The position numbers and the translations under genes were made by a program. Under the pieces are notes generated by a model that saw only the letters and a program-made list of their open reading frames with translations, searched no databases and was not told the origin of the DNA. This document shows positions 825 through 29,670 of a stretch of DNA of 64,000 nt, piece by piece. The stretch lies in NCBI GenBank assembly GCA_040220235.1, contig JAVJTO010000006.1. The stretch is one strand, 5' to 3'. Positions within the stretch are counted from its first letter, which is position 1. The number at the start of each line of letters is the position of its first letter. Source of the stretch: Coleofasciculus sp. B1-GNL1-01. Its GTDB lineage: Bacteria; Cyanobacteriota; Cyanobacteriia; Cyanobacteriales; Coleofasciculaceae.

Positions 825-996
825 TTGAGTAGAAAAATAGGGAAAGGGAAAGGAATTCAGATGCCAGCCCGGTTCTGAACCTCCAATCCCTAGGAAAGCG
901 ATCGTGTACTGAGTTGTGCCTGTAATCCTTTTGCCAGTATGCCCCACCCCTATCTTTACCCCTGAGTTGTTACAGTTTTTGTAACTGTACTTAAAC

Positions 997-7440: not shown

Positions 7441-8433
7441 ATGGGCAACATGGAGCTGATCTATCTGGTAGTCGGTATTGTCATGGGACTTGTTGTCAGC
7501 CGCGCTACTCGTTCCAGCAAACAGCCAGAAGGTTCAACGATACCAGAACCGCAACTGTCAAAACCCGAGGAATCCCAGCCAGCTAAGGCGGAACCCGTGA
7601 AAGAGGATGAACTACAGCCTCTGAAGCAGGAACTCGAGCAAACCCGACTGGCTTACCAAATGGCGCATGAAATGAGCCAGTATAAAGCTGGCTTCTTGGC
7701 GCGGACATCCCACGAACTGCGATCGCCCCTGAGTAGTTTGATGGGGATGCATCAGCTCATTTTGTCCGATTTGTGTGACTCACCGGAAGAAGCTAAGGAA
7801 TTCGTGGCTCAAGCCCATACCTCGGCGCAGAAGATGGTAAAACTTTTAGATGAGGTGATTGCCGTCGCCAAAACGGAACACGGTACTAATCGTCTAGAGA
7901 CTCGCCCCCTGCAATTGAGCCAATGCTTTGAAGAACTCGAAGTCCTCACCCACATGCAAGCCGGGAATCGTAATCTGCGGCTGAAAGTGATTTCCCCTGA
8001 CCCAGAAATAGAAGTCTTAGCTGATCCCCGGCGTTTTCGTCAGGTATTAGTGGGAATGGTGGACAGCGCTATTGTACAAATGGAAGAAGGCACTATTCAG
8101 GTTTCTACAGCCAATTCTGACAACCCCCAGATGGTGAATATTTGGATTGATGTAGAATGTCCCAACTCGATTTGGAGTGAAGCCGTTGATTTACTCTCCG
8201 ACACTAATGACTCAGAGGAACAGGAAACAATCTCATCAACAACCTCACCCGGTATGAATTGGTTGATGGTGCAAACCTTGGTGGAGATGATGAAAGGACG
8301 CTTGGAACTATTACCTATTCCTGGGAAAGAACCAAGCGACGATTCAGTTACAGACACTTGTATCCGGTTACAATGTACTATGCCTCTAGCAACTCCGGAG
8401 ATGGTCGAACAGGTGTTGGCAGAGCAGTCATGA
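7441..8433 (+). CDS. Membrane-anchored HisKA protein with degenerate HATPase domain
   Basis: N-terminal TM; H-box FLARTSHELRSPL; N-box region RFRQVLVGMVDSAI lacks the Asn; no clear G1/G2 boxes. Confidence 0.8.
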   Translation: MGNMELIYLVVGIVMGLVVSRATRSSKQPEGSTIPEPQLSKPEESQPAKAEPVKEDELQPLKQELEQTRLAYQMAHEMSQYKAGFLARTSHELRSPLSSLMGMHQLILSDLCDSPEEAKEFVAQAHTSAQKMVKLLDEVIAVAKTEHGTNRLETRPLQLSQCFEELEVLTHMQAGNRNLRLKVISPDPEIEVLADPRRFRQVLVGMVDSAIVQMEEGTIQVSTANSDNPQMVNIWIDVECPNSIWSEAVDLLSDTNDSEEQETISSTTSPGMNWLMVQTLVEMMKGRLELLPIPGKEPSDDSVTDTCIRLQCTMPLATPEMVEQVLAEQS

Positions 8434-8848
8434 TCGGTTGATTGTATAGCACCATTGTGGTTGTGGTGTTACATTCAAACCCAATGCGTTCGTAGAAGCG
8501 TTGTTGATGAGTGGTCATTAAATAAACTCGCTCAACCCGACACAGTTTGGGGTGACTAAGGACGGTTTCGACGAGCTTGCGTCCCAAGCCAACGCCGCGA
8601 TAGTCAGGATGAATGACAACATCCCAAATCGTGGCGCGGTAAATCCCATCAGAGGTGGCGCGAGCAAATCCAATCAGGCGTTGGTCATCCCATACGGTAA
8701 TTACAGGTTCACTATTGGCGATCGCGATTTTCCAGTCTTCAATGCTGCGATCCTTTGCCCAGAAAGCACTGAGGCGAAACAGAGCCTGGAGTTGGACATA
8801 ATCGATTTGAGCGGCACGATCGCAAAATTGAATAGTACGGCAATCCAT
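8378..8848 (-). CDS. GNAT N-acetyltransferase
   Basis: [31 protein letters not shown]. Confidence 0.9.
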   Translation of the reverse strand: MDCRTIQFCDRAAQIDYVQLQALFRLSAFWAKDRSIEDWKIAIANSEPVITVWDDQRLIGFARATSDGIYRATIWDVVIHPDYRGVGLGRKLVETVLSHPKLCRVERVYLMTTHQQRFYERIGFECNTTTTMVLYNQPIMTALPTPVRPSPELLEA

Positions 8849-9838
8849 TTTTCCCTAAACTCCTTGGGTTTTGGTGATCAAAGGTTATTGCACTATGATG
8901 CAACTATCTCAATATTTTCCGTTGAAGATATACCCCAATCTAACGTTGGTTAACGTGGGGAAAAATCTTCCGAATTTCGTTAGTTTGAAGACGACTCACC
9001 TGAGCATTAATCGATTTCAGGACTAGGGTTAATTGTCTCTCAACTCAGGTGGGATGATCGATTCTCTGTCTTAGTGTGAGTTGACTATTTTCTTGCTGTC
9101 ACCAAAAATTGTAGCGCTTCTAACAATAAATGCAAGAGAGAGAAGCGTTTTTTTGTTAGGAAATTATAACATTTTACTAGCTCTATCATAATTGTCCTTG
9201 GGTGTCAAATTATCGACGAATTGTTGTCAACTTTTAGGGTAAGGAGAGCGTTCCCGAAGGTAGCGTAACGCCCAATCAATAAAGCCTGGATAGATAAAAA
9301 CCATACAAAGTAGCGAGCGAGACGCTAGCACTACTGTTTCCCGTTCCCTATTGCCTATTCCCTGGCGCGTAGCGCTATAACTTTAATGAAAGTCCGACTA
9401 CTTAGCTAAGGTGGTTTATTCGTTACACGCTAAAAAAAATGGCATGAATCGCTTCGACAGCCTAAAATTATTTTGTCATACAAGTATCAAGCTAAGTCCC
9501 GGATTTGCGTAATACACTTTGAGTTATTTTTCCCAGAAAACACCTCTATATCAACACTTAAACTAGCTTTGCTGTCAATCCGGATCTGTATTACGTTTAC
9601 CCGAAGAATGAAATGATGCGGTTAAGGAACTAGATAAGATTTGCTTCTGTTTAAGCAAGCGACCTGGTTCTTCGCAATTAGCAATCAGCAATGAACAGGC
9701 GGTATCCATTTTTCCTCTCAACTGGGGAAAAGAGGTTAGGAAATGCCGTCAAATTTGGTCAGCTTAATTGACCAACGGTTTGAGCTGAATGAATGGTTAT
9801 TGGGGTGCAAGGTAAACAGTTGAGGATCAGGTTTATCG

Positions 9839-11287
9839 ATGCAACATTCTCAAGGTATTGCAGCTTACGAAACAGTAAATAATGGTTATATCAGACGGCG
9901 ACAACTTCAAGGAAATGCTGGTAGTTTACTCTTATGGGGTTTAGGGGTTGGTGCTGTTATCTCAGGTGATTTCTATGGTTGGAACTATGGTTTAGCCGCC
10001 GGAGGATTCTGGGGGTTCAGTATTGCCGCTGTCTTGATGGCAATTATGTATCTCTGTTTGGTCTATAGCAGTGCTGAACTCTCAGCCGTCCTCCCCCATG
10101 CGGGCGGATTCTACTCGTTCACCCGTTATGCCCTTGGTCCGTTTTGGGGCTTTATTTGTGGGATTACCGTCACGATTGAATATGTCCTGGCTAATGCGGC
10201 GCTGGTGTTCAGTTTAAGCAATTACCTCAAGCCTTTATTTCCCAATCTGCCCAGTTTTTTTATCTGGGTATTTGCCTACGCTGTGTTTTTGGCAATTAAT
10301 ATCCGAGGTTTTGAACTGAGTGTGACAGTCTGTCTTTGGCTAACCATCATCGCGATGACAGTATTAGGCATCTTTTATGTGAGTATGCTGGTTTCAGGTG
10401 AATTCAATTTTGACCTGCTGTTTAATATTCCGGCTGAACCGGGACAATCAGAAACCTGGTTACCGAATGGCTGGTTTGGAGTGTTTGGCGCGATTCCTTT
10501 TGCAATTTGGTTGTATCTGGCGATTGAACAATTACCGATGACGGCGGAGGAAACCGATAATGTGCCTCGAAATATGCCAACGGGAATGATTTCTGGTATG
10601 TTTACCCTGATTATTCTGTCAATTTTCACCGTAGTGATTAACTCCGGTGTTGGCGGGGGCGCGGTGGCGATTGGGCAATCCGATGCTCCCCTGCAAGATG
10701 GGTTAGAGGCTTATTTTGGCGTCGGCGCAACCAGTACTATTGTCACAGCACTGGCGCTAATTTGTGGTTTAATTGCCAGTCTCCACGGTAATATGTTTGC
10801 CTACGGACGGATTATTTTCTCCCTATCCCGTGCTGGGTATTTACCCCGTTGGTTATCAGTCACGAGTAAAAGTCATACCCCCCATCGGGCATTAATTGCC
10901 GGGGCGACGATTGGATTTATCTGTGTGCTACTGGTGAGTACTGGTATTCAAGCTGTCGATGCTGTGATTTTGAATATGGCTGTGTTTGGGGCATTAATTT
11001 CCTATATTTTGGTCATGGTTAGCTACATGAAGCTAAAAGGGAATCCCTATTTACCGAAACCCTACGAAAGCCCATTGGGAACAGCGGGAGCATTTGTGGG
11101 TTTGGCTTTAGCCACATTTGCCCTAGTTGCTTGTATTTCTATACCCGATTACCGAGGCGGTGTTTGGGGGATTGGCGTAGCGCTGATTGTGGCAAGTGTC
11201 TATTTTTTAGTGTTCCGCAGCAATCGACTGGTGGCTCAAGCCCCGGAAGAAGCGACGGCGTTGGGATTAACGGGGTATCAGGAGTAG
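9839..11287 (+). CDS. APC-family amino acid/amine permease, ethanolamine permease (Eat)-like
   Basis: ~12 TM; Y..RRQL...AG..LLWGLGVGAVISGDF.GWN.GL, AELS...PHAGG.Y, PFAIW..LAIE, C-terminal LVA.APEE. Confidence 0.8.
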   Translation: MQHSQGIAAYETVNNGYIRRRQLQGNAGSLLLWGLGVGAVISGDFYGWNYGLAAGGFWGFSIAAVLMAIMYLCLVYSSAELSAVLPHAGGFYSFTRYALGPFWGFICGITVTIEYVLANAALVFSLSNYLKPLFPNLPSFFIWVFAYAVFLAINIRGFELSVTVCLWLTIIAMTVLGIFYVSMLVSGEFNFDLLFNIPAEPGQSETWLPNGWFGVFGAIPFAIWLYLAIEQLPMTAEETDNVPRNMPTGMISGMFTLIILSIFTVVINSGVGGGAVAIGQSDAPLQDGLEAYFGVGATSTIVTALALICGLIASLHGNMFAYGRIIFSLSRAGYLPRWLSVTSKSHTPHRALIAGATIGFICVLLVSTGIQAVDAVILNMAVFGALISYILVMVSYMKLKGNPYLPKPYESPLGTAGAFVGLALATFALVACISIPDYRGGVWGIGVALIVASVYFLVFRSNRLVAQAPEEATALGLTGYQE

Positions 11288-11374
11288 GGATTTGGTTACC
11301 AAACCCCTAGTGGTTGGGTTTCGCCGAGTAATTTTTTGAAGTTTTACCCAGGCTTTACCGTTGAACAACCATCT

Positions 11375-11402
11375 GTAGGGGCAATTCATGAATTGCTCCT
11401 AC
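11375..11402. repeat. REP-like palindrome downstream of the permease
   Basis: GTAGGGGCAATTCA-TGAATTGCTCCTAC. Confidence 0.8.
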
Positions 11403-11980
11403 TTCTTAATGTTTGTGTAGTGATTTACATCTTTTTTGGTCTAAAGTCAAATGATTTTTTTTAAAGACTGCGTAAAGTTCCCATCATCTTGTTGATCTGA
11501 GCAGGAAATTGGAATATTATACGAACAGATGAAATACAAGTCATACGCTTGTCTTACGGGCGACAAAAGCCGACCAACTCAATCGTGACCGATACTCTAT
11601 CCCTCTGGTATCGCTATGGCAGAAAAACTTTACTGTATTAAGCTTTGTAAATCGCCCTCAACCCCTTACTGTTCCCTGTTCCCTGTTAAGAGTTCCCTAC
11701 TCTCAACCGTTAACTTGAATTGTGTCCACCGACTTATCATACCGAAAGCAATATTGATTGGGGTTCTGACTAGAGTTTTATCCCCCTTGAGCATCAAATA
11801 TTCTCTATCGGATTTAACGTATTTTTGAGGAATAACTATTAAATTTATTTCTCAACTAAATTGCTGAATCTAATTGGGTAAAAGGGAATAAGTAGGTGAC
11901 ACTAAAAAAATTGCCCCCGGTATCAAATAAAAAAATAGCGAACAGCTATATTTTTAGTGGCACATCACCGAACCGAACTA

Positions 11981-12104
11981 AGCTGTTATGCATTTAAATT
12001 GGGTATTAGTAGCGAGCAAGATGCAAAGCCTGCGGCATGGCTTCGCTAAACGCACTACAAGGCTTTCACCCTTATTGACATTAAGGTTGAAATGCCGGAC
12101 AGCT
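11981..12104. mobile_element. 124-bp MITE with TA flanks and nested REP
   Basis: TA-AGCTGTTATGCATTT...AAATGCCGGACAGCT-TA imperfect terminal inverted repeats; left part repeated at ~49986-50024; internal 51 bp repeated in reverse complement at 47617-47667. Confidence 0.75.
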
Positions 12105-12147
12105 TAAACCTAAAAAAGACCACTGTAAACCTGTTTCAAGGGAAACT

Positions 12148-15100
12148 ATGATGAATCGTTCCTTTCAATCATCATTAGAAATTGAGCAACTCTACGGTAT
12201 TCCTGAACCAAATAAAAAACGTGAATTACAGCAGCGACTTGAACAGTTAAACCAAACTCAAACTTACTATCCCGCCGATTACTGTATTCATCAATTAATT
12301 GAACAAGCAGAGCGTCGCACACCAGACAAAATCGCGATTCGGTTTGACGGGCAAACCCTAACCTATCGGGAGTTGAACCGCCGCGCCAACCAGGTTGCCC
12401 ACTACTTACAAACGCTACAGGTTAAACCCGATGTACTGGTGGGGATATGTCTAGAGCGATCGCTCGATATGATCGTGGGTTTATTGGGGATTCTCAAAGC
12501 TGGAGGTGCTTATGTTCCCCTTGATCCCGCCTATCCTCAAGAACGATTAGCCCTGATGATTGAGGATTCCCAAGTCCCTGTCATCGTCACCGAACAAGAC
12601 CAACTGATAAGATTACCCGACACCCAAGCCCAAGTGGTTTGCTTAGATAGCGATCGACAGACCATTACCCAACATAGTTCAGAGAATTTAGACAGTGGTG
12701 TCACGCCTGACAACTTAGCCTACACCATCTATACCTCCGGCTCAACCGGGAAACCCAAAGGCGTCCAAGTGCTGCATCGTGGGGTGGTCAATTTCCTCAC
12801 CTCAATGAGTATCGCCCCTGGACTTACTCCAAAAGACACCCTGCTGGCTGTCACCACCATCTGCTTCGACATTGCCGCATTGGAACTGTATTTACCCTTA
12901 ATCGTTGGTGCTGATATTGTCTTAGTCACGCGAGATGTCGCCGCTGATGCAACTCAGTTAATCCCGGTTTTGCAAGAATCCGGGGCTACCGTCATGCAAG
13001 CCACCCCCGCCACTTGGCGGATGTTATTAGCCGCAGGTTGGCAGGGAAATCCCCAGCTTAAAATTCTTTGTGGGGGGGAACCCATGTCCCGCGAATTGGC
13101 GCGTCAACTCTTAGAACGCAGTGCTTCCCTGTGGAATATGTACGGACCGACGGAAACCACGATCTGGTCAGCCGTGCATCAGGTAGAATCGGCGGACAAG
13201 ACTATTCCCATTGGTCGCCCCATTGCCAATACCCAAATATATCTGGCTCATTCTGAGCAAAATTCATCTGACCCGATTAAATTTGTCCCAGTAGAAGAAC
13301 CGGGAGAATTGCTGATTGGTGGGGTTGGTTTAGCACGAGGGTATCTTAACCGACCTGACTTAACTGATGAACGATTTATTCCCGATCCCTTTAGTTCAGA
13401 ACCGGGTGCCCGTCTCTATCGCACCGGAGACTTAGCCCGGTACTTACCCGATGGGACTCTGGAATGCTTAGGTCGCTTGGATCATCAGGTGAAAATTCGC
13501 GGCTTTCGGATTGAACTGGGTGAGATTGAATCCGCCCTCTATCAACATCCGGGTATCCGAGACGCGGTGGTTGTCGCCCGTGATGACAGTTCGGGCGAAA
13601 AGCGCTTAGTTGCCTATCTCGTCAGTGACTTAGACGTTGAAAATGTTCCCCTAGAAACAAAATGCTGGGTAGCGTGTGAGGGAAATCCAGAAATTGAATT
13701 AACCACCAGCAATTTCTCGGTCAATAGTATTCGGTTACTTCATGCTCCCGCCTCCTGGCGAAACGGTCAATCCTTGACGCTGCGTTGCCAGTTTCCTGGC
13801 GTTCCCGATGAACTTCAACTTACTGGAACCATCGCTACAAAAGCCCTGGAATGGGTAGATGTTTCCCTAGACACCACCTCCAGCCAACAGACATGTTTAC
13901 GTCAGAGTATCAAACACATTGCCCAAACCCAGGGATTAGCCGTTCATGACTTACGCCGCAAAGAACCCCGCACCCCGCTAACGATTAATTGTCTGGCGGA
14001 ATTAGAATCGGGTGAAAAAGTCCAGGTGATAACGCAAAATATTAGCCAAGAGGGAATTTGCTTAAAGGCAACAACGGCTAATCCCTGGCAAATCGATCAG
14101 CGCCTATTACTCCGATTACAATTACCCGGAGGTGAAACCCCGTTATGGTTGCAAGGTCATATTGTCTGGCAGTTTGAAGACTATGTTGGCGTCCAGTTTG
14201 ATACTACAACCAGCCAGAAGGCGAAACTCCATCGCAGCTTAGGCAATTTGCGGACAGAACCCCGTATTCCCCTCCAGATCAAGGGTCGGGCGGAATTTGA
14301 GTCGGGTCAACAAGTGGAAGTGATCACGCAAAACTTCAGCCGCAATGGGATTAGCTTAAAGGCGCTCACCCCGACATTTTGGCACAACAATCAACCTGTA
14401 CTTTTGCGGGTACAACTGCCAGGGGTGGACAATCCCTTGTGGCTGCAAGGCACTGTGGTTTGGCATGTTGAGGAAAACGCTGGGGTGATTTTTGAGACCA
14501 CACCCACCCAGCAGGAGCAAATCCATCAGAGTATTGAGCTGATCGTTAAAACTCAAGGATTATCGCTGGCGCAGTTGCGATCGTTCCTGAGTGATAAGCT
14601 ACCGACTTATATGGTGCCCTCAACCTTTGTGTTAGTAGATAGCCTGCCCCTAACACCCAACCGTAAAGTCGATCGCAAGGCGTTACCTGACCCCAACCAA
14701 GCGCAACAGGTGGCTCAGGATACCTTCGTCGCACCGCGCACACCTGTTGAACAGGAGTTAGCCCAAATCTGGGCAACTGTACTCGATGTTGAGCGTGTGG
14801 GTGTGTATGACAACTTCTTTGAACTAGGGGGACATTCGCTGCTGACAGCGCAACTGTTATCGCAGGTGCGAGAACAATTCCAGGTGGAGTTACCGTTGTT
14901 TGCTCTGTTTGAAGCGCCGACTGTAGCGGAACTGGCTCAAACGATTACCGCCAAGACTAACGCTGATCCGTCTCAACCGGAAGGGGATGGGACAACGGTG
15001 ACGGGTACAATCGCGGTCACGAATTTAGCCAACGATGCGGTTTTGGATGAGACGATTTATCCAGAAAAGCCCTATCGTCAGCCAGACACTGCACCGGAAA

Positions 15101-16200
15101 AGATTTTGATTACAGGCGCGTCAGGTTTTCTGGGAGCGTTTTTATTGCGGGAATTACTCCAGCATACGAATGCTACCGTCTATTGCTTAGTCCGTGCCAA
15201 AACGCTGGAGGCGGGTCAGCAAAAAATTGCCGCGAGTTTCAACCGCTATTTACTTTCATCAGATAAGTTGGAGTCGCGGGTTGTCCCGGTGTTGGGTGAT
15301 TTAGCTCAACCGAGGTTGGGACTATCAGAGTCGCAGTACGAAGCGTTAACTCGCGAGATTGACTGTATCTATCACAATGGGGCGTTTGTCAACTTAATTT
15401 ATCCCTACAGCGCCTTGCGATCGGCAAATGTCCTGGGAACTCAGGAAATTCTCAAATTAGCCAGTAAAACCAAGGTCAAACCCGTTCACTTTGTCTCAAC
15501 GCTGGATGTGTTTCAATCGCCGCGCTATGCTCAGATGTCGGTGATTTTAGAACAGGATAGCTTGGAATCAGGGGATGACCTGTCTGATGGTTATGCTCAA
15601 AGTAAATGGGTGGGTGAGAAGTTAGTTAAACAGGCACACGCACGGGGGATTCCGGCGTCGATTTACCGACCGGGTATGATTACCGGACATAGCCAAACCG
15701 GGGCGTCTCAACAGGGGGATCTAATTGACCGATTAATTAAAGGGTTGATTCAATTGGGAAGTGCGCCGGAGTTGGACTTAAATCTCAGTTTGACTCCTGT
15801 AGACTATGTGTCCCAAGCGATCGCCCATCTGTCCCAGCAACCGGATTTATTCGGTCAATCGTTTCACTTGGTTAGTCCGGAGATGGTATCCTTACAGCAA
15901 CTCGTGGACGAAATTCGGGCTATTGGTCATCCAATTGAATGGATGGATTATTCTACCTGGCAAGATAAGCTGGTTCAGGTTGCCAGTTCCCAGCCTGACA
16001 ATGCGTTGAGTCCATTGGTGTTCCTGTTTACTCAATGGGTTGGTGAAAGCCAACGCCCCTATCTGGAAACAGCGGCTTTAGTCTCTCAGGCGTTTGATTC
16101 CCAGAATACGTTAGCGGGTTTAGCCGGAACGAATATTGTCTGTCCGTCAGTTAATAGTCAGGTGATTCGGGCTTATCTGAACTATAACCAGTTGGTTTGA
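12148..16200 (+). CDS. Standalone NRPS-like reductase: A domain (interrupted by 3 PilZ-like domains) - PCP - thioester reductase
   Basis: A cores YTSGSTGKPKG, FDI, YGPTE, YRTGD, GRLDHQVKIRGFRIELGEIE, LPTYMVP, PNRKVDR; insertion with RRKEPR..NISQEG and RTEPR..NFSRNG; PCP FFELGGHSL; R domain GASGFLG and YAQSK. Confidence 0.9.
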   Translation: MMNRSFQSSLEIEQLYGIPEPNKKRELQQRLEQLNQTQTYYPADYCIHQLIEQAERRTPDKIAIRFDGQTLTYRELNRRANQVAHYLQTLQVKPDVLVGICLERSLDMIVGLLGILKAGGAYVPLDPAYPQERLALMIEDSQVPVIVTEQDQLIRLPDTQAQVVCLDSDRQTITQHSSENLDSGVTPDNLAYTIYTSGSTGKPKGVQVLHRGVVNFLTSMSIAPGLTPKDTLLAVTTICFDIAALELYLPLIVGADIVLVTRDVAADATQLIPVLQESGATVMQATPATWRMLLAAGWQGNPQLKILCGGEPMSRELARQLLERSASLWNMYGPTETTIWSAVHQVESADKTIPIGRPIANTQIYLAHSEQNSSDPIKFVPVEEPGELLIGGVGLARGYLNRPDLTDERFIPDPFSSEPGARLYRTGDLARYLPDGTLECLGRLDHQVKIRGFRIELGEIESALYQHPGIRDAVVVARDDSSGEKRLVAYLVSDLDVENVPLETKCWVACEGNPEIELTTSNFSVNSIRLLHAPASWRNGQSLTLRCQFPGVPDELQLTGTIATKALEWVDVSLDTTSSQQTCLRQSIKHIAQTQGLAVHDLRRKEPRTPLTINCLAELESGEKVQVITQNISQEGICLKATTANPWQIDQRLLLRLQLPGGETPLWLQGHIVWQFEDYVGVQFDTTTSQKAKLHRSLGNLRTEPRIPLQIKGRAEFESGQQVEVITQNFSRNGISLKALTPTFWHNNQPVLLRVQLPGVDNPLWLQGTVVWHVEENAGVIFETTPTQQEQIHQSIELIVKTQGLSLAQLRSFLSDKLPTYMVPSTFVLVDSLPLTPNRKVDRKALPDPNQAQQVAQDTFVAPRTPVEQELAQIWATVLDVERVGVYDNFFELGGHSLLTAQLLSQVREQFQVELPLFALFEAPTVAELAQTITAKTNADPSQPEGDGTTVTGTIAVTNLANDAVLDETIYPEKPYRQPDTAPEKILITGASGFLGAFLLRELLQHTNATVYCLVRAKTLEAGQQKIAASFNRYLLSSDKLESRVVPVLGDLAQPRLGLSESQYEALTREIDCIYHNGAFVNLIYPYSALRSANVLGTQEILKLASKTKVKPVHFVSTLDVFQSPRYAQMSVILEQDSLESGDDLSDGYAQSKWVGEKLVKQAHARGIPASIYRPGMITGHSQTGASQQGDLIDRLIKGLIQLGSAPELDLNLSLTPVDYVSQAIAHLSQQPDLFGQSFHLVSPEMVSLQQLVDEIRAIGHPIEWMDYSTWQDKLVQVASSQPDNALSPLVFLFTQWVGESQRPYLETAALVSQAFDSQNTLAGLAGTNIVCPSVNSQVIRAYLNYNQLV

Positions 16201-16221
16201 CATAATTGCTGGATAACGACC

Positions 16222-16254
16222 AGATCCCCGACTTCTTGAAGAAGTCGGGGATCT
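16222..16254. terminator. Strong hairpin/REP just after the NRPS stop
   Basis: AGATCCCCGACTTCTT-G-AAGAAGTCGGGGATCT. Confidence 0.6.
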
Positions 16255-25950: not shown

Positions 25951-26265
25951 GCACTCGCGCTTTGGGTTTCAATCAAAGGCAGTTTAACGTGACAATGTTA
26001 AACTTGTACATTAGCCTCAAATCCTGACAAAGGACAAATGAGTTTTTACGGCTGAAGTTGCTGAAGTTTAGTTTGAGCGGATCGCAAAAGTTCGGGGCTT
26101 CCGTACAGAAGAACCGATTTGTCTGGCTTTGATGGGGCGATTGCTGTCCGGCTCAAACATCTGCGATCGCTAAGGGCATCAAGTCGCCTATAGTATTTTG
26201 CTTTCACTTTGATTCGCGAGGTAAACTTGACTATACTAATCAGGCTAGGCTATAATTTTTACCTT

Positions 26266-27111
26266 ATGCCTTGGTTAGATAAATGGAGTAATGTAACAAA
26301 AAATGGAATTTTATGGAGTGTTTTTCAAGGAGACGCTCACTCGGTTCTATTGGATTTGCCAAGTAATCATTTTAATTGTGTGATCACATCTCCTCCGTAC
26401 TACTGGTTACGTGATTATGGGGTTGAGGAACAAATTGGACAAGAGACAAGCGTTGAAGGCTATGTCAGTGCCATTGCCTCTGTCATGGATGAAGTAAAGC
26501 GGGTACTGAAGGATGATGGTGTCCTTTTCCTCAACTTAGGTGATACCTATTATTCAGGTAAAGGAAAATCTCAAGGAAGGGATCGCAAAAGCAGTAAACG
26601 TCGATTTGGTTTAAGAGCGGTTGATAAAAGCGGTGGTTTAGGAATTGGGCTGCAACCCAAAACAATTATTGGGATGCCTTGGCGGGTTGCTATTGAAATG
26701 ACAATGCGAGGTTGGGTTCTACGCAGTCCTATTATTTGGCATCGAAAACATTGTCTTCCTGAATCCGTTAAAGATAGACCTCGACGTAGCTATGAATATG
26801 TTTTTATGTTTGCTAAAAATAGACGTTATTATTTCAATCGTTCAATGCTTGAAAAAGAAGAAGAGGAAGATATGTGGACAATTGCTGCACGTCCTAAACC
26901 AACTAATGGCATCTACACGGCACCATTCCCTGATGAGTTAGTGCAAAGATGTCTTGATATTGGATGTCCAGCAGATGGGATTGTGCTAGATCCATTTGCT
27001 GGAGGTGGAACCACTCTGAGAGTAGCGCTACAATCAGGAATATCTGCTACTGGAATAGATTTAAACCCTGAGTTTTGTAGTTACATGGTTAGTATGTTAT
27101 GTGGTCTCTGA
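26266..27111 (+). CDS. Beta-class amino-DNA methyltransferase (SPPY; likely N4-cytosine)
   Basis: CVITSPPYY before VLDPFAGGGTT; NLGDTY; IIW.R; PFPDELV. Confidence 0.9.
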   Translation: MPWLDKWSNVTKNGILWSVFQGDAHSVLLDLPSNHFNCVITSPPYYWLRDYGVEEQIGQETSVEGYVSAIASVMDEVKRVLKDDGVLFLNLGDTYYSGKGKSQGRDRKSSKRRFGLRAVDKSGGLGIGLQPKTIIGMPWRVAIEMTMRGWVLRSPIIWHRKHCLPESVKDRPRRSYEYVFMFAKNRRYYFNRSMLEKEEEEDMWTIAARPKPTNGIYTAPFPDELVQRCLDIGCPADGIVLDPFAGGGTTLRVALQSGISATGIDLNPEFCSYMVSMLCGL

Positions 27112-27118
27112 GGGCTAT

Positions 27119-29062
27119 ATGTTTCTCACAGTAAAACAAATCAAAAAATCTCTTGAGCCTCTCAAGTCTCTTCATCCCTTTTATGGGATCACATTTCTAG
27201 TGTGTAAAAAAGCTCATTTACCAGTTGGTGATACCATTCAATTTTCCATCAATGCAAGGGAGACGGAGTTCCTCAATGAATACTTCAAACCGGAACCAAC
27301 GTCTAAACACCCTTACCAAGTCTTCAAAACTTCTAATCCAAGCAATCGTTGGCTTTCACCAAATTATGCTAGCTCAGGCTCTCAGAGTACAAGGACAAGA
27401 GGGGATTTATCTAATGCATTTATTCATGATAAAAATACTAATATCTGGGGATGGCAATCGAATTATGTACAAGTGCTTCACGAACATTTAACTCGAACAA
27501 GAGAGGGTTTAATTCCAACTTTTCATTTAGCTGTATGGTTATATAGAGAAAAAAAATGGTCTTCAGATGCAACAGCTAAAGATATCGTTGATATTTTCTT
27601 TGCAGATTTTTTTATCACAGATAATGAGAAAGAGTTACTTTTTGATGCTTCTATCCCTGACGATACTGTACTAGATAAGCTGTTTCAAGATAAAAAAATA
27701 TCTTCAAGAGATTTACAGGTGATTATTGGTAAACCACCTGACTCTGATCCAGAAGAAGGTGGAACGCTACACCTTTTAGAAATCCAAGGAGTAGGACCAG
27801 CGAAACGATTAATCTTTCAACCCGGCAAAAGGCTTTCGTTGATCACTGGAGACAATGGTCTAGGAAAAACGTTTCTGCTTGATTGTGCGTGGTGGGCTTT
27901 AACGGGTAAATGGGCAGGATTGCAGGCATATCCTACGCCAACGCCAAATGCTAAAAAAAACAAACCCGTCATAGGATTTAAAATCTCTGGAGATTTTGAG
28001 TCCGAAACTATAAGAGTCTCTTACGATTGGCAAACTCAAAGCTGGAAACCGCCTAAGAAGCGACCTACTATTCCTGGTCTACTCGTGTATGCGAAAGTCG
28101 ATGGCTCTTTTGCAGTGTGGGACCCAGCTAAAGAATATCTAGCGATTCAAGAACTTGGAGATAGTGATACAACTCCACGTCCATTTGTTTTTACTAAAGA
28201 TGAAGTTTGGGGTGGGCGCGATATTGAAGTTGGAGGTCGAAAAACTACATTTATAAATGGTTTACTTCAAGATTGGATTCAATGGCAAAGTAGACCTCAA
28301 AATTCTCCATTCAATACGCTTGAAAAAGTGCTAAAACGATTATCTCCCCCCTTACAAAGTGATTTGGGAATTTTCAAACCAGGAGAACCTGTCAGAATTC
28401 CTTACGATGTTAGATCTATACCAACGATTGAGCATTCTTATGGCACGGTTCCTATCGTTTATACTTCAGCAGGTGTTCGTCGTGTCATCACACTTGCCTA
28501 CCTAATTATCTGGGCATGGGAAGAACATAAAATTCAATCCAAGCTGATTCGCAAAAAACCACAGAAAAAGATGGTGATTTTAATTGATGAGTTAGAAGCT
28601 CACCTCCATCCGCAATGGCAAAGGGTGATTTTATCAGCTTTATTGGATGTTAGGGAAGATTTAGCTACTGACTTACAAGTGCAACTGATGGTTGCTACCC
28701 ACTCTCCCATGATTATGGCATCTGTGGAATCGAGATTCGATGAAAAATTAGATAAGTTATTCCGTCTAGATCTTGCCAAGAGTGGCTTAAATACTAACGA
28801 AGTAGATTTGGTTCAATTACCTTTCATCCGTCAAGGGCGCATTGATGCTTGGCTTACATCAGATGTTTTTGGTCTTAGACAACCTCGTTCTATTGAAGGA
28901 GAGCAGGTTATACAAGCCGCAAAAGCACTACAAGAAGCTGAGAATCCGAGTTCACAGGATGTACAGAAGGTTTCAGATAAACTGAGAAAATACTTAGCCG
29001 AGGATGATGAATTCTGGTCTCGGTGGCTATTTTTTGCAAGACAACATGGAGCATCGTTGTGA
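27119..29062 (+). CDS. ABC/AAA_21-type ATPase with extra ~215-aa N-terminal domain (PtuA-like)
   Basis: Walker A GDNGLGKT, signature SAGVRR, Walker B/D-loop ILIDELEAHLHPQWQR, H-loop ATHSP. Confidence 0.85.
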   Translation: MFLTVKQIKKSLEPLKSLHPFYGITFLVCKKAHLPVGDTIQFSINARETEFLNEYFKPEPTSKHPYQVFKTSNPSNRWLSPNYASSGSQSTRTRGDLSNAFIHDKNTNIWGWQSNYVQVLHEHLTRTREGLIPTFHLAVWLYREKKWSSDATAKDIVDIFFADFFITDNEKELLFDASIPDDTVLDKLFQDKKISSRDLQVIIGKPPDSDPEEGGTLHLLEIQGVGPAKRLIFQPGKRLSLITGDNGLGKTFLLDCAWWALTGKWAGLQAYPTPTPNAKKNKPVIGFKISGDFESETIRVSYDWQTQSWKPPKKRPTIPGLLVYAKVDGSFAVWDPAKEYLAIQELGDSDTTPRPFVFTKDEVWGGRDIEVGGRKTTFINGLLQDWIQWQSRPQNSPFNTLEKVLKRLSPPLQSDLGIFKPGEPVRIPYDVRSIPTIEHSYGTVPIVYTSAGVRRVITLAYLIIWAWEEHKIQSKLIRKKPQKKMVILIDELEAHLHPQWQRVILSALLDVREDLATDLQVQLMVATHSPMIMASVESRFDEKLDKLFRLDLAKSGLNTNEVDLVQLPFIRQGRIDAWLTSDVFGLRQPRSIEGEQVIQAAKALQEAENPSSQDVQKVSDKLRKYLAEDDEFWSRWLFFARQHGASL

Positions 29063-29670
29063 TTCCTGTTCAAGAAAAACCTGAACCCATAGATTTTGAA
29101 CGCAAAGTTAGAGCAAAAGGGAGGAATTTCTTACAACAAGTCCCTTGCCCAAAAAATTGGGACAATCGGGAATATTGGAGAAATTCTCTGAAGGATCTCT
29201 ATAAAGCTTATAACGGCGTTTGTGCTTACTCTGCCCAATGGATTCCCGAAACTGAAGGAAGTCCCACCGTTGATCATTTTATTCCAAAAGCCTTTAAACC
29301 GGAGTTAGCCTACGAGTGGAGCAATTTCCGCCTTTCCTGTTTAAAGATGAATGCCAGAAAGAAAGACTTTCAAGATGTTTTAGACCCCTTCCAGATTCAG
29401 TATAGATGGTTTACCTTAAATTTTCCTTCTTTGATCATCAAACCGGGTTTAAATCTAGAACCATCGATTAGAAGTAAAGTTGAGAGTACTATTCAGCGTT
29501 TACAGTTAAATAAAGAGGAAACTATAAATTCTAGATTTTATTGGCTGATGAAATATTGTGAGAATAAATTTCCTTTTGAGTTTTTGCAAGAGGTTGCTCC
29601 ATTTATTGCTTCTGAGTTAGAACGTCAAAATCTTATTGGCTCAATCGCGTCTATCATGTCAGTCAGTTGA
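29059..29670 (+). CDS. HNH endonuclease (PtuB/retron-HNH-like)
   Basis: CAY...TVDHFIPK....LAYEWSNFRLSC...N; GTG start overlapping the ATPase stop (GTGA), GGAG RBS. Confidence 0.85.
   Translation: MIPVQEKPEPIDFERKVRAKGRNFLQQVPCPKNWDNREYWRNSLKDLYKAYNGVCAYSAQWIPETEGSPTVDHFIPKAFKPELAYEWSNFRLSCLKMNARKKDFQDVLDPFQIQYRWFTLNFPSLIIKPGLNLEPSIRSKVESTIQRLQLNKEETINSRFYWLMKYCENKFPFEFLQEVAPFIASELERQNLIGSIASIMSVS

Follow-up and report, generated by a model that had tools for sequence, protein, structure and literature searches.

A stand-alone adenylation-carrier-reductase enzyme of Coleofasciculus with three PilZ-like units inside its adenylation domain, a candidate for control by c-di-GMP

A 64,000-nucleotide stretch of Coleofasciculus sp. 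B1-GNL1-01 (contig JAVJTO010000006.1, assembly GCA_040220235.1; hereafter the window) was analyzed with regard to one gene, a single open reading frame (ORF) on the plus strand without internal stop codons which is translated into a protein of 1350 amino acids (aa). The product is a stand-alone enzyme composed of an adenylation (A) domain, a peptidyl carrier protein (PCP) domain and a thioester reductase (R) domain, that is, a one-module reductase resembling non-ribosomal peptide synthetases (NRPSs). The domains occur in that order, and every one of them scored above the threshold of its own model (Table 1). Motifs A3 to A10, the serine of the PCP and the YxxxK of the R domain were all read in the product. 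The NCBIfam model TIGR01733 (amino-acid adenylation domain) was matched with 458.5 bits against a cut-off of 317.4, so that the host A domain is otherwise complete, and TIGR01746 (thioester reductase) with 353.6 bits against 213.35. The best full-length NCBIfam matches were models of the MxcG and Lys2 types, and none of the named equivalogs was reached (MxcG 660/2300, Lys2 601/1030, CAR 238/1300 and AusA 552/2500 bits, given as score/cut-off).

Table 1. Features of the gene and of its surroundings, in positions of the window; dN/dS was calculated by the Nei-Gojobori method between this enzyme and those of six congeners.
Feature	Position	Strand	Residues (aa)	dN/dS	Motifs and matches
Whole gene, A(PilZ x3)-PCP-R	12148..16200	+	1350 in total		Pfam and NCBIfam
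Adenylation core	12301..13347	+	52-400	0.12-0.19	PF00501 AMP-binding, E 7.5e-89; A3 YTSGSTGKPKG, A4 FDIAALE, A5 NMYGPTE
C-terminal subdomain, first half	13348..13623	+		0.02-0.07	A7 YRTGDLA, A8 GRLDHQVKIRGFRIELGEIE, strand RLVAYLV; AMP-binding_C at aa 459-496
PilZ-like unit 1	13624..13944	+	493-599	0.09-0.26	no RxxxR; second motif NFSVNS
PilZ unit 2	13945..14244	+	600-699	0.06-0.15	RRKEPR 13954-13971, NISQEG 14038-14055; PF07238, E 7.2e-16
PilZ unit 3	14245..14562	+	700-805	0.06-0.17	RTEPR 14251-14265, NFSRNG 14332-14349; PF07238, E 5.3e-12
C-terminal subdomain, second half	14563..14727	+			A9 LPTYMVP, A10 NRKVDRK with catalytic Lys; second AMP-binding_C stretch
Carrier domain (PCP)	14752..14946	+	869-933		GGHSL; PF00550 PP-binding, E 1.4e-15
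Thioester reductase (R) domain	15100..16188	+		0.05-0.11	TGASGFLG, YAQSK; TIGR01746; PF07993 NAD_binding_4, E 3.3e-72, aa 988-1225
APC-family permease	9839..11287	+			Pfam AA_permease_2, E 4.1e-37; best NCBIfam model TIGR00908 (ethanolamine permease)
Perfect palindrome, 13-bp stem, terminator-like	16222..16254	.			just past the stop codon

The A domain is interrupted between motifs A8 and A9. Here 325 residues separate RLVAYLV and the A9 motif (LPxYMVP), compared with approximately 19 in A domains without an insert from the same set of hits. The AMP-binding_C match preceding the insert corresponds to positions 1-38 of the 76 positions of the Pfam profile, and a second stretch follows after the insert. 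Since the A10 motif NRKVDR lies downstream of the insert, the C-terminal (mobile) subdomain, or lid, is truly split. A first interpretation made without database searches (the sequence-only reading) had placed an insert of about aa 495-805 between RLVAYLV and A9 within the mobile subdomain; the borders determined here are aa 493 and 805, the insert comprises three barrels of approximately 100 aa, and the site is the one occupied by the methyltransferase of TioS (5wmm), the top Foldseek match. No methyltransferase, ketoreductase or oxidase family was detected in the insert by Pfam scans of the full protein and of the single repeats.

In the full-length protein Pfam PilZ was matched in two stretches (E 3.8e-28) lying between the split AMP-binding_C stretches, where two to three copies of PF07238 had been expected by the sequence-only reading. 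When each repeat was scanned alone, units 2 and 3 reached 58.8 and 46.4 bits, respectively, against the PF07238 cut-off of 22.5 bits, and both PilZ signatures were read where that reading had seen them (RRKEPR at aa 603 and NISQEG at aa 631; RTEPR at aa 702 and NFSRNG at aa 729). Units 2 and 3 also constitute a repeat at the DNA level (D1, 13957-14069 versus 14251-14363), with 73% identity over 113 nt, far beyond chance. Neither the PilZN nor the YcgR family of Pfam was matched by the repeats of the insert. Unit 1 scanned alone gave no Pfam match even at E 10; it is homologous nonetheless, with 32-38% identity to repeats 2 and 3 and 49% identity to the first unit of P0008, another protein with three units. 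The orthologous unit 1 exceeded the Pfam PilZ cut-off in all six relatives tested (30-42 bits), the match beginning at profile position 6, i.e. without the part that contains RxxxR. When the units are aligned, ERVP in unit 1 falls opposite the second arginine of RRxEPRxP, and a gap of two residues takes the position of the double arginine.

The fold of the insert was predicted by AlphaFold in two models. The first, of lid plus insert (aa 400-860, 43 aligned sequences), had a predicted local distance difference test score (pLDDT) of 74.7 and a predicted template modelling score (pTM) of 0.46. Its top match in Foldseek was TioS 5wmm, with lids of NRPSs and PilZ receptors of two domains ranking next, and both lid halves (model residues 46..450) superposed on solved lids with a root-mean-square deviation (rmsd) of 1.5-2.0 over 96-101 residues and Z 14.8-15.8 in a VIA search (3vnr, rmsd 1.5 over 96 residues). 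According to the model, then, the two parts of the subdomain come together again around the insert. The second model (AF2), of the insert only (aa 493-812, 36 sequences; pLDDT 84.5, pTM 0.43), has six predicted strands and a helix in each of the three units. Unit 1 is its most confident part (pLDDT approximately 93-95), with the helix at model residues 86-102, and the RRKEPR linker is a stretch of low confidence (residues 104-113, pLDDT <50). Loops of the RxxxR type are disordered in solved PilZ proteins when no ligand is present.

Foldseek matches of the insert-only model were headed by PlzA (7mie, 1.1e-8), followed by VCA0042, MotI, MrkH and YcgR. VIA, which is independent of Foldseek, was run against 48,161 chains, and the top 15 were all PilZ structures (Z 9.5-14.0), the next row having Z 8.4; the fold expected by the sequence-only reading was thus recovered in the models. 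Units 2 and 3 matched solved PilZ domains with Z 12-14 and rmsd 2.0-2.8 (unit 2 with 4i86, Z 14.0, rmsd 2.1 over 96 residues; unit 3 with 8u0i, Z 12.9, and 3kyf, Z 12.4); these PilZ-domain rows cover units 2 and 3, and unit 1 is assigned by its homology and its secondary structure.

With aa 470-830 as the query, 66 proteins were obtained, in 50 of which PF07238 and AMP-binding were found together. By their source names, relatives with the same A-PilZ-PCP-R architecture include members of Coleofasciculus (84-97% identical), Allocoleopsis, Symploca, Xenococcaceae and UBA9273, so that the architecture, for which a search in other genomes had been proposed, is present in other genera. Multi-modular relatives of the condensation-A-PCP type, with or without a thioesterase, were found in Microcoleus, Mojavia, Aulosira and Candidatus Parabeggiatoa. 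Inserts of 0, 1, 2 or 3 units occur at exactly one shared site and their size is quantised, the distance between the landmarks being approximately 122-138 aa with one unit, approximately 227 aa with two and 325-337 aa with three. As side observations, some multi-modular synthetases (P0036, P0090 and P0069) have PilZ inserts in two A domains of one protein, and one synthetase of 3853 aa has an insert of three-unit size (A8-A9 distance 367).

The two motifs were counted in 51 proteins. RxxxR was found in one of 36 first units of multi-unit inserts and [DN]xSxxG in 29 of them. Later units had RxxxR in 40 of 44 cases, [DN]xSxxG in 37 and both in 33; when serine, glycine or alanine was allowed at the third place of the second motif, all 44 matched. 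In single-unit inserts the figures were 1/16 and 10/16, respectively. The lack of RxxxR in 35 of 36 first barrels gives the inserts a layout like that of YcgR and PlzA, with the binding motif in the linker between barrels. Unit 1 had been called degenerate by the sequence-only reading; its lack of RxxxR and its NFSVNS stand, but it is not merely a decayed copy and is, by these counts, the constant, motif-less first barrel of the family and not a random wreck.

In a tree of the units the first units formed one well-supported clade (100/97), and units 2 and 3 of this enzyme were sisters (91/94). Together with the 73% DNA repeat, this indicates that the third barrel is a lineage-specific duplicate of the canonical barrel. 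The extra unit of P0008 was placed elsewhere in the tree, in which the deep forks were without resolution, and P0008 likely gained it separately, by an independent triplication. In P0051 (1062 aa), an orthologue with 69% identity before the insert site and 58% after it, the barrels are gone while the start of the insert and its last helix (SDLS-TEQAQIAQSVEYIIETQGLSL) are kept. P0051 is a natural deletion of the barrels, which fits a dispensable, modular add-on. In the order sample the three-unit gene was found in 6/6 other species of the genus (insert identity 80-96%), and all three barrels are under purifying selection (Table 1).

With the own genome included, matches at E <=1e-20 were present in 17 of the 401 genomes of the order sample, among them 11 of 27 within the family, and at E <=1e-10 in 16 of 401 genomes of the phylum sample, nearly all in open frames of 1233-3700 aa. 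A comparison of the insert with 1.84 billion cluster representatives yielded 88 at E <=0.001, 27 at <=1e-10 and 4 at <=1e-30. Fifty-eight of the 88 are of at least 700 aa, 45 contain the A3 motif (by regular expression), and at least 37 have an enlarged A8-A9 distance, a lower bound set by strict patterns. By these matches, the barrels have as their nearest relatives for the most part inserts in other synthetases, not free-standing PilZ proteins.

The specificity code of the A domain was read as DILQLGMIWK through the motif anchors FD-I-xx-L-E, VM-Q-ATP, I-L-C-G-GE, N-M-YGPTETT-I-W and NR-K. Exactly this signature is reported to be shared by four glycine-activating domains (PMC12283262). Among the 33 readable proteins with two or three units, 25 had exactly DILQLGMIWK, four had DILQLGMVWK, three had a different code (P0016, P0035 and P0037) and one partial protein agreed at 9 of 10 readable code positions; three N-terminally truncated proteins were left out of this census. 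The code of P0051 is DILQLGVVWK (by eye), and single-unit inserts occur in A domains with many different codes. An Asp235 suggests an alpha-amino acid and not a betaine as the substrate. Since Asp235 and Lys517 are present and the R domain is intact (TGASGFLG, YAQSK), conversion of glycine to aminoacetaldehyde or ethanolamine is the simplest reading, and it is probably the reaction of this enzyme. The A domain would activate glycine and load it onto the carrier domain, and the resulting glycyl-S-PCP would be released by NAD(P)H-dependent reduction in the R domain as aminoacetaldehyde, possibly continuing to ethanolamine.

A related one-module adenylation-carrier-reductase logic, by which an acid of the glycine type becomes an amino-aldehyde or amino-alcohol, is known from MxcG and from the terminal Gly-R step of linear gramicidin. 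Chemically, the nearest known case is a fungal glycine-betaine reductase of the A-T-R-R type, which is reported to make choline (10.1101/559534). It shares this logic but has two R domains where the present enzyme has one, and none of the three systems carries a sensor insert.

The gene directly upstream, on the same strand, encodes an ethanolamine-permease-like member of the APC family (Table 1). By tblastn it was found in this position in 6/6 congeners and in G002, G095 (two copies), G507 and G404; in other genera the permease lies upstream at four of five assessable loci. Two loci were outside this count, since G685 ends approximately 100 bp beyond the start of the enzyme and the match of G662 is at a contig end. 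The permease was absent from 4/4 multi-modular loci with a two-unit insert. A motif-based locus search drew on generic NRPS motifs, most of its 49 loci being ordinary NRPSs, and was not used for synteny. No EutB match was found in the own genome, which is 100% complete, and the permease is therefore not part of the standard set for ethanolamine catabolism. Conservation of the pair is consistent with an amine as product or substrate of the enzyme, and the permease would then transport the product itself or a closely related compound.

The own genome contains 17 GGDEF matches above the cut-off and with them the capacity to make cyclic di-guanosine monophosphate (c-di-GMP). Of its only three Pfam PilZ matches, two belong to this gene and the third to a cellulose synthase of 876 aa resembling BcsA (GT2, Cellulose_synt and PilZ; G000:C107, L108 1358-3988). 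If the motifs work, the enzyme and the cellulose synthase would be the only Pfam-detected PilZ outputs in this organism.

Among known systems, the insert is comparable to three groups. The first consists of A domains interrupted between A8 and A9, in which, as in TioS A-M-A (5wmm), a foreign fold is housed in the A8-A9 loop (PMC8341866); both lid halves align with those of TioS around the insert (VIA Z 15.2). The inserts known at this site are catalytic tailoring domains (methyltransferase, ketoreductase or oxidase), whereas the present one is a non-catalytic receptor fold in one to three copies. The second group, the two-domain receptors YcgR (5y6f), MotI/DgrA (5vx6), PlzA (7mie), MrkH (5ejl) and VCA0042/PlzD (2rde), matched the insert best in structure (Foldseek E 1e-8 to 4e-5; VIA Z 10.5-13.0 over 178-184 residues) and has in common with it a motif-less barrel, an RxxxR linker and a canonical PilZ barrel. 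According to a family survey, PilZ-PilZ and xPilZ-PilZ receptors have c-di-GMP binding relegated to the linker between the domains (10.1101/814665). These receptors are free-standing proteins of approximately 210-250 aa acting on partner proteins or DNA, whereas here the array lies inside a 1350-aa enzyme, and it differs further by a third unit and by a C-terminal helix on every unit which the YcgR-like N-domain does not have. The third group, BcsA (4p00, 9fmv) and Alg44 (4rt0), consists of biosynthetic enzymes with a fused PilZ domain to which allosteric control is attributed (single-barrel Z 12.4-13.6, rmsd 2.3-2.6); there the PilZ domain is appended to one end of a membrane glycosyltransferase or co-polymerase, and here it is nested in a soluble adenylation domain of the ANL type that is part of a thiotemplate enzyme.

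The best explanation of the gene, held with moderate confidence, is that of a glycine-activating A-PCP-R reductase in which the PilZ chain of the lid serves as a control by c-di-GMP. The C-terminal subdomain of ANL enzymes rotates by approximately 140 degrees between adenylation and thioester formation. In receptors of the YcgR type, c-di-GMP bound at the RxxxR linker clamps two barrels together, and in BcsA the binding of c-di-GMP to PilZ releases auto-inhibition. By analogy with these proteins, a direct switching of the enzyme by the lid barrels is suggested. The linkers between units 1 and 2 and between units 2 and 3 would supply RxxxR, and barrels 2 and 3 the [D/N]xSxxG, barrel 1 being without a binding motif. 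Binding of c-di-GMP at the linkers would lock barrels 1-2 and 2-3 into a rigid body, as in YcgR, PlzA, MotI and MrkH, and the rigid chain would alter the rotational freedom of the lid or its docking surfaces and thereby set the rate of glycine loading. Two sites would make the response steep, and the effect, guessed from BcsA, would be activation. What the data show are the domain identities, the site of insertion, the conserved motifs, purifying selection, a code of the glycine type, synteny with the permease and a genome able to make c-di-GMP. That the ligand binds, which way it acts, what the enzyme uses and makes and what the permease does are inferences, those on binding and switching being drawn from motifs, conservation and analogy. 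The stronger proposal, that c-di-GMP directly gates glycine loading and that a small-amine output together with cellulose would form the only two PilZ-wired outputs of sessile or mat life in these filamentous cyanobacteria, is more tentative; the amine would be aminoacetaldehyde, ethanolamine or a pyrazine derived from them.

Several points weigh against this explanation. RxxxR is missing from 15 of 16 single-unit inserts of multi-modular NRPSs, and the ancestral role of the insert may thus not have been c-di-GMP binding. In Coleofasciculus, unit 1 has also lost the glycine of the second motif, and unit 3 has RxxxR yet is without the double arginine. The mutual arrangement of the barrels is unreliable in both models (pTM 0.43-0.46), and a phmmer search of the insert against PDB sequences gave nothing below E 0.1, with chance rows of ribosomal L4 at E >=0.13, so that the fold is shown by the models instead. 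The positions of the specificity code were placed by motif anchors after GrsA numbering, and aldehyde and alcohol as products of the R domain are not distinguishable from its sequence. Substrate specificity is hard to infer in the APC family, and the permease matched TIGR00908 over its full length with 357.8 bits, below the cut-off of 381.75 (next family, 101 bits). The gaps between permease and enzyme are long (approximately 450-1550 bp), and in G661 the enzyme is present with no permease within 8 kb (tblastn). In RNA libraries the permease (9382-11283) and the enzyme (11764-16247) are spanned by different contigs, none of which bridges the gap between them; being contig data, this speaks neither for nor against co-transcription.

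Of the other explanations, the one that survives best, though unlikely, is docking or localisation, in which c-di-GMP bound by the PilZ array would bring the enzyme to a partner such as the permease, the membrane, the cellulose synthase or another copy of itself while catalysis is not switched. YcgR, MotI and MapZ, all among the structural matches, act by c-di-GMP-dependent binding of partners, the conserved neighbour is a membrane transporter, and the insert projects from a surface loop which tolerates large cargo, as in TioS 5wmm. A subdomain whose rotation drives catalysis would, however, be an odd site for a tether, since an N- or C-terminal fusion would suffice.

Less probable still is that the barrels are ligand-free spacers or oligomerisation modules comparable to xPilZ and tetrameric PilZ, in which the motifs are historical. 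Non-binding relatives of PilZ are documented in the family survey (10.1101/814665), and the motif-less first units and single-unit inserts counted above agree with such a role, the latter keeping it alive for the wider family. For this protein the conservation of the later units argues against it, as RxxxR, and in three quarters of cases both motifs, persist across proteins only 40-50% identical; dN/dS is low, and the third unit was duplicated with both motifs retained.

It is very improbable that the units gate the enzyme on a different ligand, e.g. another cyclic dinucleotide. The variants NISQEG and NFSRNG do depart from the family consensus NISRGG, but both canonical motifs are intact, and we take the solved PilZ complexes with these motifs (4rt0, 5y6g, 8u0i and 3kyf among the matches) to hold c-di-GMP. 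That the insert has crippled the A domain and left a decaying or non-catalytic relic is hardly credible, as the A10 lysine, the PCP serine, the YxxxK of the R domain and the other core motifs are present, the frame is intact in 6/6 congeners with dN/dS of 0.02-0.19 in the catalytic parts, and, more weakly, RNA-library contigs from four runs in four studies span the whole gene of a relative (approximately 92-96% identity), carry-over of DNA being possible.

To our knowledge the regulation of NRPS-type enzymes operates by way of transcription and the supply of precursors, and a signal receptor in the moving part of an adenylation domain would add a level of control that is new for them. If the c-di-GMP explanation is true, the master signal of sessile life would be tied directly to the synthesis of a small molecule, and this would be the first post-translational second-messenger control built into a catalytic domain of an NRPS. 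If the gating is real, the insert would be a transferable module under ligand control for the A8-A9 loop, where foreign domains are already known to be tolerated, and a ready-made switch for engineered assembly lines. The present enzyme is the simplest test case found in the family, with one soluble module, a probable glycine substrate and an optical NADPH read-out, to which may be added two putatively intact motif sites, the barrel-less P0051 as a possible control and a transporter hinting at the product. The sequence-only reading knew of no characterised example, and a literature search, the coverage of which misses most subscription journals, likewise turned up no paper on PilZ domains within NRPSs or adenylation domains. 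Neither PilZ nor c-di-GMP is mentioned in the catalogue of interrupted A domains from 2020 (PMC8341866), and in the PilZ family survey (10.1101/814665) the words adenylation, synthetase and cyanobacteria do not occur.

With regard to the surrounding locus, the enzyme is followed downstream by ndhC, ndhK and ndhJ, and no other NRPS or polyketide synthase gene was found within 30 kb of it. A riboswitch search of positions 8800-12300 gave no Rfam match (E <=1). In addition to the palindrome listed in Table 1, a second short element is located at approximately 11979-12050, about 100-170 bp ahead of the start codon. At both elements the depth of the RNA-library contigs spiked to 10,000-100,000, with numerous loose ends, and a contig joint from 12002 to 16222, with 39 other letters between, was seen in all four runs. 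Both elements resemble short repeats that are dispersed in these cyanobacteria and flank the gene by chance.

A set of the chemotaxis type adjoins the pair of permease and enzyme in two other genera. At L076 (1689-7320) the pair lies beside a methyl-accepting chemotaxis protein (MCP; dCache-HAMP-GAF), CheW and two response regulators, and at L077 (845-4252, 14371-16302) beside a similar MCP and a multi-PAS sensor. The own locus has no such set, only a HisKA protein of 330 aa being encoded at 7441-8433. Also at L077, ORFs of 319 and 368 aa (8212-9171, 13195-14301) without a Pfam or NCBIfam match flank the G095 enzyme. Elsewhere in the window, at 26209-29670, a stretch of low GC content (0.40), the gene for an N6/N4 DNA methylase (300 aa) overlaps that for an AAA_15/AAA_21 ATPase of 653 aa, after which follows an ORF of 215 aa without a Pfam match; this region looks like a restriction or defence-type island.

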